The notes beneath the pieces were generated by a model, which was given only the letters and a program-made list of their open reading frames with translations, did no database searches and was not told the DNA's origin. DNA of 6,197 bases from a virus (lineage: Duplodnaviria > Heunggongvirae > Uroviricota > Caudoviricetes), in IMG/VR virus record IMGVR_UViG_2541047125_000012. One strand, 5' to 3'. This document shows, in pieces, positions 1 through 6,197 of this stretch (positions within the stretch are counted from its first letter, which is position 1; every line of letters starts with the position of its first letter). The position numbers and the translations under genes were made by a program.

Positions 1-182
1 CGCGCGTTACCCAGCTTGATTACGGGCAAATCCCCCCGGTTAACCTTGATTCTGGCCTGCGGATTTTTAACCGTGGCCCTTTTCAGCCTGGCCCTTTCCT
101 TTACCAGTTTCCGGCGTACTCTTGTCTCACGGGCAACCTGTGACGCCGACTGCGATATCGCGGATGAAGCAACGCGGTTAAT
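1..182 (-). pseudogene. Z: Inverted, 5'-truncated fragment of the tail completion protein Z gene (about codons 30-89), reading leftward out of the window.
   Basis: Minus-strand translation of 182->94 gives INRVASSAISQSASQVARETRVRRKLVKE, and the next codon (95->93, R) runs in frame into the copy of arm 2 (ARLKRATVKNPQ...). This matches what I recall as the native lambda gpZ segment just upstream of ARLKRATV. No start codon or N-terminal approx. 29 codons are present. Confidence 0.6.
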
Positions 183-275
183 GGCCAGGCTGAAAAGGGC
201 CACGGTTAAAAATCCGCAGGCCAGAATCAAGGTTAACCGGGGGGATTTGCCCGTAATCAAGCTGGGTAACGCGCG
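1..275. repeat. Perfect inverted repeat: arm 1 (1-93) is the exact reverse complement of arm 2 (183-275), 93/93 matches, with an 89-bp unique segment (94-182) between them. Arm 1 reaches the window edge, so the repeat may continue upstream.
   Basis: Base-by-base reverse-complement comparison done by hand. The match breaks at 94 vs 182 (c vs t, not complementary). The partner of position 276 would lie before position 1. Confidence 0.95.
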
Positions 276-588
276 GGTTGTCCTGTCCCGACGCAGGCGT
301 CGTAAAAAGGGGCAGCGTTCATCCCTGAAAGGTGGCGGCAGCGTGCTTGTGGTGGGAAACCGTCGTATTCCCGGCGCGTTTATTCAGCAACTGAAAAATG
401 GCCGGTGGCATGTCATGCAGCGTGTGGCCGGGAAAAACCGTTACCCCATTGATGTGGTGAAAATCCCGATGGCGGTGCCGCTGACCACGGCGTTTAAACA
501 GAATATTGAGCGGATACGGCGTGAACGTCTTCCGAAAGAGCTGGGCTATGCGCTGCAGCATCAACTGAGAATGGTAATAAAGCGATGA
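181..588 (+). CDS. Z: Tail completion protein Z, 5'-truncated: native codons approx. 59-192 are intact and the native start and N-terminus are absent. An in-frame ATG at 181-183 is created at the junction. The supplied ORF 16-588 is a chimeric read-through of the inverted arm, not the native gene.
   Basis: Translation from 184 (ARLKRATVKNPQARIKVNRGDLPVIKLGNARVVLSRRRRRKKGQRSS...LRMVIKR) matches recalled lambda gpZ. The TGA stop at 586-588 overlaps the U start (ATGA). Native gpZ is 192 aa by recollection, which would need a start near position 10, where the sequence is ccc. Confidence 0.8.
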   Translation: MARLKRATVKNPQARIKVNRGDLPVIKLGNARVVLSRRRRRKKGQRSSLKGGGSVLVVGNRRIPGAFIQQLKNGRWHVMQRVAGKNRYPIDVVKIPMAVPLTTAFKQNIERIRRERLPKELGYALQHQLRMVIKR

Positions 589-980
589 AACATACTGAAC
601 TCCGTGCAGCCGTACTGGATGCACTGGAGAAGCATGACACCGGGGCGACGTTTTTTGATGGTCGCCCCGCTGTTTTTGATGAGGCGGATTTTCCGGCAGT
701 TGCCGTTTATCTCACCGGCGCTGAATACACGGGCGAAGAGCTGGACAGCGATACCTGGCAGGCGGAGCTGCATATCGAAGTTTTCCTGCCTGCTCAGGTG
801 CCGGATTCAGAGCTGGATGCGTGGATGGAGTCCCGGATTTATCCGGTGATGAGCGATATCCCGGCACTATCAGATTTGATCACCAGTATGGTGGCCAGTG
901 GCTATGACTACCGGCGCGACGATGATGCGGGCCTGTGGAGTTCAGCCGATCTGACTTATGTCATTACCTATGAAATGTGA
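585..980 (+). CDS. U: Tail terminator protein U (tail tube terminator), 131 aa.
   Basis: ORF 585-980 ([36 protein letters not shown]...) matches recalled lambda gpU in sequence and length. The ATG overlaps the Z stop, and synteny is Z-U-V. Confidence 0.9.
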
Positions 981-982
981 GG
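979..982 (+). promoter_or_regulatory. Shine-Dalgarno (GAGG) for V, 5 nt upstream of ATG 988.
   Basis: tgaGGAGgacgatATG read directly; it overlaps the U stop codon. Confidence 0.6.
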
Positions 983-987
983 ACGAT

Positions 988-1728
988 ATGCCAACACCAA
1001 ATCCTCTGGCACCGGTGAAAGGGGCCGGGACCACACTGTGGGTTTATAACGGGAACGGCGACCCATATGCAAACCCGCTTTCAGACAATGACTGGTCGCG
1101 TCTGGCAAAGGTTAAAGACCTGACGCCCGGCGAACTGACCGCTGAGTCCTATGACGACAGTTATCTCGATGATGAAGATGCGGACTGGGCCGCGACCGGA
1201 CAGGGGCAGAAATCCGCTGGAGATACCAGCTTCACGCTGGCGTGGATGCCCGGAGAGCAGGGGCAGCAGGCGCTGCTGGCGTGGTTTAATGAAGGTGATA
1301 CCCGTGCCTATAAAATCCGCTTCCCGAACGGCACGGTCGATGTGTTCCGCGGCTGGGTCAGCAGTATCGGTAAGGCGGTGACGGCGAAGGAAGTGATCAC
1401 CCGCACGGTGAAAGTCACCAACGTGGGACGTCCGTCGATGGCAGAAGATCGCAGCACGGTAACAGCGGCAACCGGCATGACCGTGACGCCTGCCAGCACC
1501 TCGGTGGTGAAAGGGCAGAGCACGACGCTGACCGTGGCATTCCAGCCGGAAGGCGCAACCGACAAGAGCTTCCGTGCGGTGTCTGCGGATAAAACAAAAG
1601 CCACCGTGTCGGTCAGTGGTATGACCATCACCGTGAAAGGTGTTGCTGCAGGCAAGGTCAACATTCCGGTCGTATCCGGTAATGGTGAGTTTGCTGCGGT
1701 TGCAGAAATCAACGTCACCGCCAGTTAA
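988..1728 (+). CDS. V: Major tail tube protein V, 246 aa, with a C-terminal Ig-like (Big_2-type) domain.
   Basis: The supplied ORF runs 958-1728, but the ATG at 988 ([20 protein letters not shown]...) has a GAGG Shine-Dalgarno and gives the 246-aa length I recall for lambda gpV. The ATG at 958 would overlap U and has no Shine-Dalgarno. TAA stop at 1726-1728. Confidence 0.9.
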
Positions 1729-1731
1729 TCC

Positions 1732-1735
1732 GGAG
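1732..1735 (+). promoter_or_regulatory. Shine-Dalgarno (GGAG) for G, 8 nt upstream of ATG 1744.
   Basis: taatccGGAGaatcagcgATG read directly. Confidence 0.6.
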
Positions 1736-1743
1736 AATCAGCG

Positions 1744-2166
1744 ATGTTCCTGAAAACCGAATCATTTGAACATAACGGCGTGACCGTCACGCTTTCTGAA
1801 CTGTCAGCCCTGCAGCGTATTGAGCATCTCGCCCTGATGAAACGGCAGGCAGAACAGGCGGAGTCAGACAGCAACCGGAAGTTTACTGTGGAAGACGCCA
1901 TCAGAACCGGCGCTTTTGTGGTGGCGATGTCCCTGTGGCATAACCATCCGAAGAAGACGCAGATGCCGTCCATGAATGAAGCCGTTAAACAGATTGAGCA
2001 GGAAGTGCTTACCACCTGGCCCGCGGAGGCAATTTCTCATGCTGAAAACGTGGTGTACCGGCTGTCCGGTATGTATGAGTTTGTGGTGAATGATGCCCCT
2101 GAACAGGCAGAGGACGCCGGGCCTGCAGAGCCTGTTTCTGCGGGAAAGTGTTCGACGGTGAGCTGA
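1744..2166 (+). CDS. G: Tail assembly chaperone G, 140 aa (the zero-frame product).
   Basis: ORF 1744-2166 (MFLKTESFEHNGVTVTLSELSALQRIEHLALMKRQAEQAE...) matches recalled lambda gpG. It ends 18 nt after the slippery heptamer. Confidence 0.87.
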   Translation: MFLKTESFEHNGVTVTLSELSALQRIEHLALMKRQAEQAESDSNRKFTVEDAIRTGAFVVAMSLWHNHPKKTQMPSMNEAVKQIEQEVLTTWPAEAISHAENVVYRLSGMYEFVVNDAPEQAEDAGPAEPVSAGKCSTVS

Positions 2167-2582
2167 GTTTTGCCCTGAAACTGGCGCGCGAGATGGGGCG
2201 ACCCGACTGGCGTGCCATGCTTGCCGGGATGTCATCCACGGAGTATGCCGACTGGCACCGCTTTTACAGTACCCATTATTTTCATGATGTTCTGCTGGAT
2301 ATGCACTTTTCCGGGCTGACGTACACCGTGCTCAGCCTGTTTTTCAGCGATCCGGATATGCATCCGCTGGATTTCAGTCTGCTGAACCGGCGTGAGGCTG
2401 ACGAAGAGCCTGAAGATGATGTGCTGATGCAGAAAGCGGCAGGGCTTGCTGGAGGCGTTCGTTTTGGCCCGGACGGGAATGAAGTTATCCCCGCTTCCCC
2501 GGATGTGGCGGACATGACGGAGGATGACGTAATGCTGATGACAGTATCAGAAGGGATCGCAGGAGGAGTCCGGTATGGCTGA
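1744..2582 (+). CDS. T: Tail assembly chaperone G-T fusion made by -1 frameshift: join(1744..2148, 2148..2582). The T-frame part (2148-2582) has no independent initiation.
   Basis: T-frame ORF 2148-2582 (VFDGELSFALKLAREMGRPDWRAMLAGMSSTEYADWHRF...) matches the recalled lambda T region. Its stop (TGA 2580-2582) overlaps the H start (ATGGCTGA). Confidence 0.8.
2142..2148 (+). promoter_or_regulatory. Programmed -1 ribosomal frameshift slippery heptamer G GGA AAG, linking the G frame to the T frame.
   Basis: G-frame codons GGA (2143-2145) and AAG (2146-2148). The -1 frame opens at 2148 (GTG TTC GAC = VFD...) and runs to 2582 with no start codon or Shine-Dalgarno of its own. This matches the conserved tail-chaperone frameshift of lambda G/G-T. 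Confidence 0.8.
2561..2566 (+). promoter_or_regulatory. Shine-Dalgarno (AGGAGG) for H, 8 nt upstream of ATG 2575.
   Basis: gcAGGAGGagtccggtATG read directly; it lies inside the 3' end of the T frame. Confidence 0.7.
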
Positions 2583-5142
2583 ACCGGTAGGCGATCTGGT
2601 CGTTGATTTAAGTCTGGATGCGGCCAGATTTGACGAGCAGATGGCCAGAGTCAGGCGTCATTTTTCCGGTACGGAAAGTGATGCGAAAAAAACAGCGGCA
2701 GTCGTTGAACAGTCGATGAGCCGGCAGGCGCTGGCTGCACAGAAAGCGGGAATTTCCGTCGGGCAGTATAAAGCCGCCATGCGTATGCTGCCTGCGCAGT
2801 TCACTGACGTGGCCACGCAGCTTGCAGGTGGGCAAAGTCCGTGGCTGATCCTGCTGCAACAGGGGGGGCAGGTGAAGGACTCCTTCGGCGGGATGATCCC
2901 CATGTTCAGGGGGCTTGCCGGTGCGATCACCCTGCCGATGGTCGGGGTCACCTCGCTGGCGGTGGCGACAGGTGCGCTGGTGTACGCCTGGTACCAGGGA
3001 GATTCCACGCTTTCAGCGTTTAATAAAACCCTGGTTCTTTCCGGTAATCAGTCCGGACTGACTGCCGATCGCATGCTGACGCTCTCAAGAGCCGGGCAGG
3101 CAGCAGGGCTGACGTTTAACCAGGCGAGAGAGTCACTGGCAGCCCTGGTGAATGCCGGTGTGCGTGGTGGTGAACAGTTTGATGCCATCAACCAGAGTGT
3201 CGCGCGTTTTGCTTCTGCATCCGGTGTGGAGGTGGACAAGGTTGCAGAGGCTTTCGGAAAACTGACCACCGACCCTACGTCGGGGCTGATTGCGATGGTG
3301 CGCCAGTTCCGTAACGTGACGGCAGAGCAGATTGCGTATGTTGCGCAGCTGCAGCGTTCCGGTGATGAGGCCGGGGCCTTACAGGCGGCGAACGATATCG
3401 CCACGAAAGGCTTTGATGAGCAGACCCGTCGCCTGAAAGAAAACATGGGGACACTGGAGACCTGGGCGGATAAAACCGGGAAGGCATTCAAATCGATGTG
3501 GGATGCCATTCTGGATATCGGTCGTCCTGAGTCCTCAGCGGATATGCTCGCCAGTGCACAGAAGGCATTTGATGAGGCGGATAAAAAATGGCAGTGGTAC
3601 CAGAGCCGGAGCCAGCGCCGGGGAAAAACCGCCTCTTTCCGGGCCAACCTTCAGGGCGCATGGAATGACCGGGAAAATGCCCGTCTGGGGCTGGCAGCGG
3701 CCACGCTGCAGTCGGATATGGAAAAAGCCGGTGAACTGGCCGCCAGGGACCGGGCCGAACGGGACGCATCACAGCTGAAGTATACCGGAGAGGCGCAGAA
3801 GGCGTATGAGCGTCTGCTGACGCCGCTGGAGAAATATACCGCCCGTCAGGAAGAACTGAATAAGGCCCTGAAAGACGGGAAAATCCTGCGGGCGGATTAC
3901 AACACGCTGATGGCGGCGGCGAAAAAGGACTATGAAGCGACGCTGAAAAAGCCGAAACAGTCCGGCGTGAAGGTGTCTGCGGGCGATCGTCAGGAAGACA
4001 GTGCTCATGCTGCCCTGCTGACGCTTCAGGCAGAACTCCGGATGCTGGAGAAGCATGCCGGAGCGAATGAGAAAATCAGCCAGCAGCGCCGGGATTTGTG
4101 GAAGGCAGAAAGTCAGTTCGCGGTACTGGAGGAGGCGGCACAACGTCGCCAGCTGTCCGCACAGGAGAAATCCCTGCTGGCGCATAAAGACGAGACGCTG
4201 GAGTACAAACGCCAGCTGGCTGTACTTGGCGACAAGGTCACCTATCAGGAGCACCTGAACGCGCTGGCACAGCAGGCGGATAAATTCGCACAGCAACAAC
4301 GGGCAAAACGGGCCGCCATTGATGCAAAAAACCGGGGGCTGACTGACCGGCAGGCAGCGCGGGAAGCCACGGAACAGCGCCTGAAGGAACAGTATGGCGA
4401 TAATCCTCTGGCGCTGAATAACGTCATGTCAGAGCAGAAAAAGACCTGGGCAGCTGAAGACCAGCTTCGCGGGAGCTGGATGGCAGGCCTCAGGTCAGGC
4501 TGGAGTGAGTGGGAAGAGAGCGCCACGGACAGTATGTCGCAGGTTAAAAGTGCTGCCACGCAGACCTTTGATGGTATTGCACAGAATATGGCGGCGATGC
4601 TGACCGGCAGTGAACAGAACTGGCGCAGCTTCACCCGTTCCGTGCTGTCCATGATGACAGAAATTCTGCTTAAGCAGGCAATGGTGGGGATTGTCGGAAG
4701 TATAGGCAGCGCCATTGGCGGCGGCGCATCAGCGTCAGGCGGTACAGCCATTCAGGCAGCTGCGGCGAAATTCCATTTTGCGGCCGGAGGGTTTACGGGA
4801 ACCGGCGGCAAATATGAGCCAGCGGGGATTGTTCACCGTGGTGAATTTGTCTTCACGAAGGAGGCAACCAGCCGGATTGGCGTAGGAAATCTTTACCGGC
4901 TGATGCGCGGCTATGCCACCGGCGGTTATGTCGGTACACCGGGCAGCATGGCGGACAGCCGGTCGCAGGCGTCCGGGACGTTTGAGCAGAATAACCATGT
5001 GGTGATTAACAACGACGGCACGAACGGTCAGATAGGGCCACAGGCACTGAAGGCGGTTTATGACGTAGCCCGTAAGGCGGCAATGGATGTTGTGACCGGG
5101 CAGATGCGCGATGGTGGTCTGTTCTCCGGAGGTGGACGATGA
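2575..5142 (+). CDS. H: Tail tape measure protein H, 855 aa.
   Basis: ORF 2575-5142 (MAEPVGDLVVDLSLDAARFDEQMARVRRHF...MRDGGLFSGGGR) matches recalled lambda gpH. It has a long Ala/Gln/Glu/Lys/Arg-rich helical middle, a Gly-rich hydrophobic C-proximal segment, and sits between G-T and M. Confidence 0.92.
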   Translation: MAEPVGDLVVDLSLDAARFDEQMARVRRHFSGTESDAKKTAAVVEQSMSRQALAAQKAGISVGQYKAAMRMLPAQFTDVATQLAGGQSPWLILLQQGGQVKDSFGGMIPMFRGLAGAITLPMVGVTSLAVATGALVYAWYQGDSTLSAFNKTLVLSGNQSGLTADRMLTLSRAGQAAGLTFNQARESLAALVNAGVRGGEQFDAINQSVARFASASGVEVDKVAEAFGKLTTDPTSGLIAMVRQFRNVTAEQIAYVAQLQRSGDEAGALQAANDIATKGFDEQTRRLKENMGTLETWADKTGKAFKSMWDAILDIGRPESSADMLASAQKAFDEADKKWQWYQSRSQRRGKTASFRANLQGAWNDRENARLGLAAATLQSDMEKAGELAARDRAERDASQLKYTGEAQKAYERLLTPLEKYTARQEELNKALKDGKILRADYNTLMAAAKKDYEATLKKPKQSGVKVSAGDRQEDSAHAALLTLQAELRMLEKHAGANEKISQQRRDLWKAESQFAVLEEAAQRRQLSAQEKSLLAHKDETLEYKRQLAVLGDKVTYQEHLNALAQQADKFAQQQRAKRAAIDAKNRGLTDRQAAREATEQRLKEQYGDNPLALNNVMSEQKKTWAAEDQLRGSWMAGLRSGWSEWEESATDSMSQVKSAATQTFDGIAQNMAAMLTGSEQNWRSFTRSVLSMMTEILLKQAMVGIVGSIGSAIGGGASASGGTAIQAAAAKFHFAAGGFTGTGGKYEPAGIVHRGEFVFTKEATSRIGVGNLYRLMRGYATGGYVGTPGSMADSRSQASGTFEQNNHVVINNDGTNGQIGPQALKAVYDVARKAAMDVVTGQMRDGGLFSGGGR
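5128..5132 (+). promoter_or_regulatory. Shine-Dalgarno (GGAGG) for M, 6 nt upstream of ATG 5139.
   Basis: ctccGGAGGtggacgATG read directly; it lies inside the last codons of H. Confidence 0.65.
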
Positions 5143-5468
5143 AAACCTTCCGCTGGAAAGTGAAACCCGGTATGGATGTGGCTTCGGCCCCTTCCGTAAG
5201 AAAGGTGCGCTTTGGTGATGGCTATTCCCAGCGAGCGCCTGCCGGGCTGAATGCCGACCTGAAAACGTACAGCGTGACGCTTTCTGTTCCCCGTTGGGAG
5301 GCCACGGCGCTTGAGTCGTTTCTGGCTGAGCACGGGGGCTGGAAGGCCTTTCTGTGGACGCCGCCTTATGAGTGGCGGCAGATAAAGGTGACCTGCGCAA
5401 AATGGTCGTCGCGGGTCAGTATGCTGCGTGTTGAGTTCAGCGCAGAGTTTGAACAGGTGGTGAACTGA
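5139..5468 (+). CDS. M: Tail tip assembly protein M, 109 aa.
   Basis: ORF 5139-5468 (MKTFRWKVKPGMDVASAPSVRKVRFGDGYSQRAPAGLNADLKTYSV...) matches recalled lambda gpM. ATGA overlap with the H stop and TGATG overlap with the L start. Confidence 0.88.
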   Translation: MKTFRWKVKPGMDVASAPSVRKVRFGDGYSQRAPAGLNADLKTYSVTLSVPRWEATALESFLAEHGGWKAFLWTPPYEWRQIKVTCAKWSSRVSMLRVEFSAEFEQVVN

Positions 5469-6166
5469 TGCAGGATATCCGGCAGGAAACACTGAATGAA
5501 TGCACCCGTGCGGAGCAGTCGGCCAGCGTGGTGCTCTGGGAAATCGATCTGACAGAGGTCGGTGGAGAACGTTATTTTTTCTGTAATGAGCAGAACGAAA
5601 AAGGTGAGCCGGTCACCTGGCAGGGGCGACAGTATCAGCCGTATCCCATTCAGGGGAGTGGTTTTGAACTGAATGGCAAAGGCACCAGTACGCGCCCCAC
5701 GCTGACGGTTTCTAACCTGTACGGTATGGTCACCGGGATGGCGGAAGATCTGCAGAGTCTGGTCGGCGGAACGGTGGTCCGGCGTAAGGTTTACGCCCGT
5801 TTTCTGGATGCGGTGAACTTCGTCAACGGAAACAGTGACGCCGATCCGGAGCAGGAGGTGATCAGCCGCTGGCGCATTGAGCAGTGCAGCGAACTGAGCG
5901 CGGTGAGTGCCTCTTTTGTACTGTCCACGCCGACGGAAACGGACGGCGCTGTTTTTCCGGGACGTATCATGCTGGCCAACACCTGCACCTGGACCTATCG
6001 CGGCGATGAGTGCGGTTATCACGGTCCGGCGGTCGCGGATGAATATGACCAGCCAACGTCCGATATCACGAAGGATAAATGCAGCAAATGCCTGAGCGGT
6101 TGTAAGTTCCGCAATAACGTCGGCAACTTTGGCGGCTTCCTTTCCATTAACAAACTTTCGCAGTAA
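5468..6166 (+). CDS. L: Tail tip protein L, 232 aa, with a Cys-rich C-terminal region (putative Fe-S site).
   Basis: ORF 5468-6166 (MQDIRQETLNECTRAEQSASVVLWEIDLTEVGGERYFFCNEQNEKGEP...FGGFLSINKLSQ) matches recalled lambda gpL. AGGTGG Shine-Dalgarno at 5454-5459. Confidence 0.9.
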   Translation: MQDIRQETLNECTRAEQSASVVLWEIDLTEVGGERYFFCNEQNEKGEPVTWQGRQYQPYPIQGSGFELNGKGTSTRPTLTVSNLYGMVTGMAEDLQSLVGGTVVRRKVYARFLDAVNFVNGNSDADPEQEVISRWRIEQCSELSAVSASFVLSTPTETDGAVFPGRIMLANTCTWTYRGDECGYHGPAVADEYDQPTSDITKDKCSKCLSGCKFRNNVGNFGGFLSINKLSQ

Positions 6167-6171
6167 ATCCC

Positions 6172-6197
6172 ATGACACAGACAGAATCAGCGATTCT
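6172..6197 (+). CDS. K: Tail tip assembly protein K, 5' end only (first 8 codons); it continues past the window.
   Basis: ATG at 6172, 5 nt after the L stop, encoding MTQTESAI..., which matches my recollection of the lambda gpK N-terminus and the expected L-K synteny. Too short to confirm on its own. Confidence 0.5.

Follow-up and report, generated by a model that had tools for sequence, protein, structure and literature searches.

A probable contig-end fold-back inside tail completion gene Z of an O157:H7-type prophage of Escherichia coli

Introduction

Does the left end of the 6,197-nt stretch of DNA analyzed here (the window) belong to a prophage that has lost its tail completion gene Z, or does it reflect the way in which a contig came to its end? 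Lambda particles defective in Z look normal and are poorly infectious. A first-pass annotation had concluded that no intact Z is present, that a junction within the gene creates both a chimeric open reading frame (ORF) and an in-frame ATG, and that, if the structure is real, the prophage probably cannot complete tails, an engineered or defective lambda derivative being a further possibility. Every sequence-level statement in that annotation holds; the biology drawn from them is not supported. It is unlikely that the feature represents real biology, the most likely origin being a sequencing or assembly chimera. The gene calls of the source collection already show the fold-back as two fragments of Z.

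The source contig and its tail module

The window is the entire draft WGS contig AVRK01000061.1 (GCA_000462345.2) from E. coli 09BKT024447, with which it is identical in sequence over the range 1-6,197 (6,197 bp). The inverted arm opens at base 1 of this contig, which puts the fold-back at its physical end. Across the public assemblies of the collection searched, the exact 855-aa tape-measure protein H was found on one contig only, again AVRK01000061.1. The window carries a lambda-type tail module comprising the 3′ part of Z, followed by U, V, G, T, H, M, L and the start of K, with the contig ending inside Z before any FII gene and with U placed downstream as in native loci. The features are as follows.

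1-93, minus strand: left fold-back arm, the exact reverse complement of 183-275 (antisense Z nt 174-266)
1-203, minus strand: partial Z ORF of 68 aa (...AINRVASS...KLGNA) running off the contig end, a gene call of the source collection
16-588, plus strand: chimeric ORF with a TTG start, open to position 1, its first ~56 residues being the antisense reading of Z
94-182, minus strand: spacer or loop of 89 nt, antisense native Z nt 85-173 (codons ~29-58), the sole copy of this segment on the contig
181-183, plus strand: ATG made by the junction, replacing native codon 58 (AGG) and in frame with A59, for a 135-aa N-truncated Z product
183-187, no strand assigned: junction microhomology GGCCA, which can be assigned to Z nt 84-80, where the inverted piece stops, or to Z nt 174-178, where the forward piece opens
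183-588, plus strand: forward 3′ part of tail completion gene Z, nt 174-579, from the last base of codon 58 through the stop, 100% identical to TR01
585-980, plus strand: tail terminator gene U, intact, overlapping the Z stop by the native 4 nt as in native prophages
988-1728, plus strand: V, ORF
1744-2166, plus strand: G, ORF
2148-2582, plus strand: T, ORF
2575-5142, plus strand: H, ORF
5139-5468, plus strand: M, ORF
5468-6166, plus strand: L, ORF
6172-6197, plus strand: first 26 nt of gene K (C40 peptidase), at the contig end

A slippery heptamer GGGAAAG is located at 2142-2148, at the end of G, where the T frame overlaps, as would be expected for the conserved G/GT -1 frameshift known from the tail chaperones of lambda-like phages.

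Anatomy of the fold-back

The native reference gene in an O157:H7 prophage is 579 nt long and encodes 192 aa (locus L002, 5831-6409), which agrees with the length that the first-pass annotation had given for gpZ; the start that it expected near position 10 is indeed occupied by ccc. Comparison with L002 showed that window 183-588 corresponds to native Z nt 174-579 and window 1-187, taken as its reverse complement, to native Z nt 80-266, confirming that the N-terminal part of the chimeric ORF is antisense Z. On the contig codons 29-58 are thus inverted, codons 1-26 are missing, and codons 1-58 do not lie upstream on the plus strand.

The two pieces generate an inverted repeat between 1-96 and 180-275 with 99% identity, exact across 1-93 and 183-275 (93 of 93 positions complementary), which lies far outside what chance would produce. 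They are joined at a 5-nt inverted microhomology, TGGCC...GGCCA, the two halves of which are 89 nt apart, and this microhomology sits in the palindrome TGGCCA or AATGGCCATT (Z nt 78-87). There are 1,447 five-nt inverted pairs with loops of 20-200 nt within the window, so that substrates for a fold-back are nothing special. An origin by plain inversion of the 89 nt that separate the two pentamers was considered and is ruled out, since window 1-88 is antisense Z 179-266 rather than forward upstream Z.

The octamer ATGGCCAT occurs twice in frame in native Z, at nt 1-8 and 79-86 (L002 5831-5838 and 5909-5916), encoding M-A-I at codons 1-3 and again at codons 27-29. The two copies make up an 8-nt direct repeat, and the second is a possible internal start directly before the recurrent deletion endpoint (see below).

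Comparison with related genomes

The forward 3′ part of Z encodes residues 59-192 of a protein of the lambda gpZ family (PF06763), 100% identical to the Z protein of the O157:H7 prophage and followed by U with the native 4-nt overlap; the contig differs from lambda gpZ in having no codons 1-58 ahead of this part on its strand. Read from window 187 to 1, the inverted piece likewise shows 100% identity to O157:H7 genomes, for example at TR01 1,575,470-1,575,656, and both pieces match one intact O157:H7 Z gene at the TR01 locus with 100% identity. The contig as a whole is 100% identical to the TR01 prophage over 183 to ~2930 and over ~3930 to 6197, and the TR01 prophage has both an intact Z and a full set of head genes upstream. 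With lambda-like phage records the DNA of the window is ~94.5% identical, and the suggestion of an engineered lambda derivative is therefore not borne out, the DNA being of O157:H7 type. The window from ~2930 to 3930, inside the tape-measure gene H, shows only 60-86% identity to TR01 between flanks of 100%; this divergent stretch of ~1 kb could be natural mosaicism, or the H alleles of several prophages could have been mixed in the assembly.

The junction itself was not found elsewhere. Neither the 5,426 complete E. coli genomes nor the 50,697 phage records searched had a place covering at least 80% of window 1-700, and a 36-mer spanning the junction had no exact match in GTDB species representatives, IMG/VR or JGI metagenomes. 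The possibility that the contig broke off at a repeat boundary (Z nt 266/267 or 173/174) was also considered and is unsupported, Z nt 80-266 being single copy in TR01, while the extra places in TR01 for Z 267-579 fit partial similarity to 177-aa Z variants.

Because the window is a whole contig that ends inside Z, the absence of codons 1-58 from the plus strand says nothing about the genome. The earlier view that the prophage has no intact Z and probably cannot complete tails thus does not follow: the contig simply ends inside the gene, the O157:H7 relatives carry it intact, and a probable chimera at the contig end holds no reliable information on whether this prophage builds tails. For the failure to complete tails to be roughly right, the lesion would have to be real and the genome free of any further copy of Z.

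The chimeric reading frame and the junction ATG

The ORF at 16-588 has a transmembrane-like stretch near its N-terminus, with a Kyte-Doolittle 19-residue maximum of 2.43 at residue 9, in agreement with the hydrophobic segment noted in the first-pass annotation. The ATG at 181-183 has the frame and the product length described there, and the remark that it lacks a convincing Shine-Dalgarno sequence also stands, no AGGAGG-like sequence being present in the sequence upstream of it (...gaagcaacgcggtta). Both reading frames scored far above the gathering cut-off of the Pfam Minor_tail_Z profile (PF06763; 23.9 bits), the ORF at 16-588 with 197.8 bits over profile positions 44-190 of 190 and the ORF at 181-588 with 193.2 bits over positions 57-190 of 190. 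Neither covers the full profile, positions 1-43 and 1-56 respectively being missing, and this places the truncation point that an alignment to the family had been expected to define.

Might the family simply start near codon 59, with the 135-aa product as a natural short Z? Beyond the in-frame ATG nothing speaks for such a variant and it is hardly credible. The Pfam model has 190 positions, full-length members start at codon 1, and thousands of native 192-aa proteins match from position 1 (the native cluster P0004 alone has 4,637 members); furthermore window 94-182 is itself an antisense copy of codons 29-58. Nor did the residues encoded by 16-180 match a natural variant in any of the Z proteins read.

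In exact protein look-ups the products of 16-588 and 1-588 were not on record. The product of 181-588 matched only locus L003 (GCA_027675025.1, JAQDTW010000058.1), a 2.2-kb lambda contig with a run of Ns and indels that appears to be a low-quality assembly. At 841-860 this contig carries ...ctggtaaATGGCCAGG..., with a 5-nt deletion and a G>T change relative to native Z, and it has in addition a frameshifting 5-nt insertion at Z codon 3-4. A different lesion there makes the same ATG and exactly the same 135-aa product, which is called as a gene. As a natural short Z, L003 was rejected in view of the poor quality of the contig, with its Ns and indels, and of the different lesion by which its ATG arises.

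Among 5.8 billion protein clusters, near-identical matches covered only the native 63-69% of the chimeric query. The matches with larger coverage were Z proteins with native N-termini or with internal duplications, and the antisense N-terminus was present in 0 of the 31 sequences read among the matches.

A functional reading of the locus would have the prophage without a working Z, expressing either the chimeric 190-aa protein or the 135-aa N-truncated form, or would make it an engineered lambda derivative. The ORFs do exist mechanically, the chimeric one has its hydrophobic N-terminus and L003 yields the same 135-aa product as a called gene, yet this reading depends on the junction being real, and we consider it very improbable. 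The start at ATG 181 has no Shine-Dalgarno sequence, the N-terminal profile positions (1-43 or 1-56) are absent, the chimeric N-terminus occurs in none of the homologues read, and the DNA is that of an O157:H7-type prophage rather than of laboratory lambda. The gene calls of the source collection likewise leave the chimeric ORF uncalled, giving instead the minus-strand partial Z at 1-203 (68 aa) and a Z fragment at 247-588 (113 aa).

Origin of the junction

The reading that we favor, with a probability of roughly 0.6, is that the junction is a snap-back or template-switch chimera which arose during sequencing or assembly and was retained as a tip at the contig end, and that it has no meaning as gene architecture. 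The observations behind this reading are that two opposite-strand pieces of a single locus are joined at a 5-nt microhomology around an 89-nt loop with arms complementary at 93 of 93 positions, that both pieces match a single intact O157:H7 Z gene at 100%, that inverted pentamers able to serve as substrates abound in the window, that the window is a complete contig with the inverted arm running from base 1, and that the junction was not found in the other genomes or collections searched. Such a geometry is what a 3′ end classically yields when it snaps back on its own or a sister strand and is extended. The anatomy, the position at the contig end, the match of the two pieces to a single intact gene and the failure to find the junction elsewhere are matters of direct observation. 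Chimeras formed during library preparation are known in which part of a read is the inverted complement of neighboring sequence at short inverted repeats (PMC10908179). Fold-back artefacts of long reads, defined by a second, opposite-strand segment no more than 200 bp away, can tangle assembly graphs (PMC12870357). The present junction resembles the former, for which a self-pairing (PDSM) model has been proposed, in being an inverted complement of nearby sequence joined at a short natural inverted repeat. It resembles the latter in that both parts lie within 200 bp on opposite strands, such artefacts being ones that disturb assemblies and structural-variant calls. It differs from both kinds of read chimera in being known from an assembled contig alone. 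Several features by which a fold-back chimera is recognized are present here, namely opposite-strand segments less than 200 bp apart, a short inverted microhomology, a contig terminus and absence from the related genomes searched.

In mechanistic terms, a single strand ending ...AATGGCCA-3′ would snap back and pair with the TGGCC located 89 nt farther upstream, either within itself or in a sister molecule, and a polymerase would extend the snapped-back end, for instance during end repair or amplification in library preparation, to give an inverted chimera. The assembler would then extend the contig end through the chimera until the path met its own reverse complement, and would stop there. The in vitro origin and the behavior of the assembler are steps that we infer. 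On such an origin the ORF at 16-588 and the ATG at 181 would be by-products, and the Z gene of the strain would probably be intact, as in related O157:H7 genomes.

The main competing explanation, distinctly less probable in our judgment though well short of negligible, is that the junction is present in the DNA of the strain as the joint of an inverted duplication or inversion, formed by in vivo template switching or snap-back between TGGCC (Z 80-84) and GGCCA (Z 174-178) in a TID- or ODIRA-like event, or by an illegitimate inversion involving two equally oriented prophages. Inverted joints formed at short inverted repeats by template switching, including TID, ODIRA and quasipalindrome switching, are established biology (PMC4689423; PMC10766183; PMC7202029), and the window shares with these duplications an inverted joint, a short inverted repeat and a spacer of tens of bases, differing in being known from one junction on an assembled contig. 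A real junction would also make the contig end exactly where its path meets its own reverse complement, as seen. Several points count for it and against an artefact. Assemblers normally drop junctions that are supported by one or two reads. A strain-specific rearrangement fits uniqueness to one assembly equally well. No repeat boundary is present here in related complete genomes and, with Z nt 80-266 single copy in TR01, no independent cause of the contig break can be named. Lastly, the junction sits on the palindrome AATGGCCATT, beside a breakpoint met repeatedly in real genomes, among them the complete ones of ML35 and E500002; as a rough estimate, the end of the inverted piece would fall on a palindrome near a recurrent breakpoint by coincidence in ~1 of 10 cases. 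Against a real junction stand its absence from every other genome or collection searched and its position off the recurrent TA/ACCG point, and by our estimate such events happen far less often than chimeras at contig ends. In E. coli, moreover, long inverted repeats are unstable when their spacer is short, and a multi-kb inverted repeat with an 89-nt spacer, such as would result were the arms to continue past the contig, is poorly tolerated. Even with a real junction, which would disrupt that copy of Z, the strain could still have an intact one: TID keeps the first copy intact and the remaining genome lies outside the view of this contig, so that the claim of no intact Z would still not follow. 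Such a junction would amount to one strain-specific prophage lesion of little general interest.

The contig-end chimera, which we prefer, carries a more general caution in that a fold-back at the end of a contig can mimic a disrupted gene, a new membrane-like chimeric ORF and a defective prophage all at once.

A recurrent deletion endpoint in lambdoid Z genes

The comparison of Z-family proteins brought to light several with unrelated N-termini, all passing into native Z at N30. In the DNA, independent partners on the left side meet ...TA/ACCGCGTTGC (TA/ACCG, Z nt 87-92, the stroke marking the joint) with nucleotide precision, at the right edge of the 10-bp palindrome AATGGCCATT. The partners and loci are as follows.

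Left partners from the head-gene region: gpA (four different positions), Nu1, portal and capsid E (two positions, one at the protein level only)
Further left partners: a replication-like HTH gene, an ea22-like region and three others
Loci with the recurrent endpoint: L005-L011, L043, L104 and L132-L134
Z nt 87-92 in the window: antisense copy at 175-180

The complete genomes ML35 and E500002 account for two of these junctions. A scan of IMG/VR that required three non-native bases ahead of a 31-nt anchor returned 4 contigs at the TA/ACCG site (Z nt 87-92), and 0 at a control position, at two other AACCG sites and at a second candidate site. The reciprocal class, in which Z 1-86 is kept, was looked for and not found. 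In the junctions read the left partner always ends in TA, often as GG(N)TA, with a microhomology of 1-7 nt. There is no Chi site in the window that could act as protector of the fixed end, and we know of no BstEII-like, integron-core, cos-like or IS-end explanation of the hot spot that fits all of the junctions.

A second candidate point was seen at ...TA/ACCGTCGTATTCC (TA/ACCGTCG, "/NRRIPGAF" in the protein), which corresponds to Z nt 348-353, window 357-362 and Z codon 117. The partners fused to this codon are gpA, portal and one other, in three protein clusters (P0076, P0079 and P0083; loci L135-L137), two of which were read as DNA in Logan assemblies. The joint again lies directly 5′ of ACCG, and TA is once more the end of the left partner.

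The junction in the window is 3-7 nt from the first TA/ACCG point. As a member of that class it was rejected, the inverted piece staying native as far as Z nt 80. A link could take the form that the fold-back is real, or stems from a real DNA end, and that lambdoid Z genes have a sequence-specific break or recombination point at the right edge of AATGGCCATT (TA/ACCG, nt 87-92), with a second at nt 348-353. The first point would repeatedly have given nucleotide-precise deletions on one side only, by which Nu1, A, portal, E or early genes became joined to Z codon 30 and head-less prophages resulted. The junction in 09BKT024447 would then be the snap-back of an end that this activity had produced a few bases off. 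Taken together these propositions are improbable. A recurrent Z endpoint across many E. coli prophages would be new if it is true that a specific nuclease or recombinase, or a mechanism of head-less, tail-only prophages, underlies it.

Small rearrangements were also seen elsewhere in the family. In public assemblies the Z homologues P0001, P0002, P0006, P0031 and P0054 show internal changes that keep the frame, either tandem duplications or deletions, located at short direct repeats (a duplicated VKNPQARIKVNRGDLPVIRLGNAR is one case), and Z appears to be unusually prone to small rearrangements or to assembly errors.
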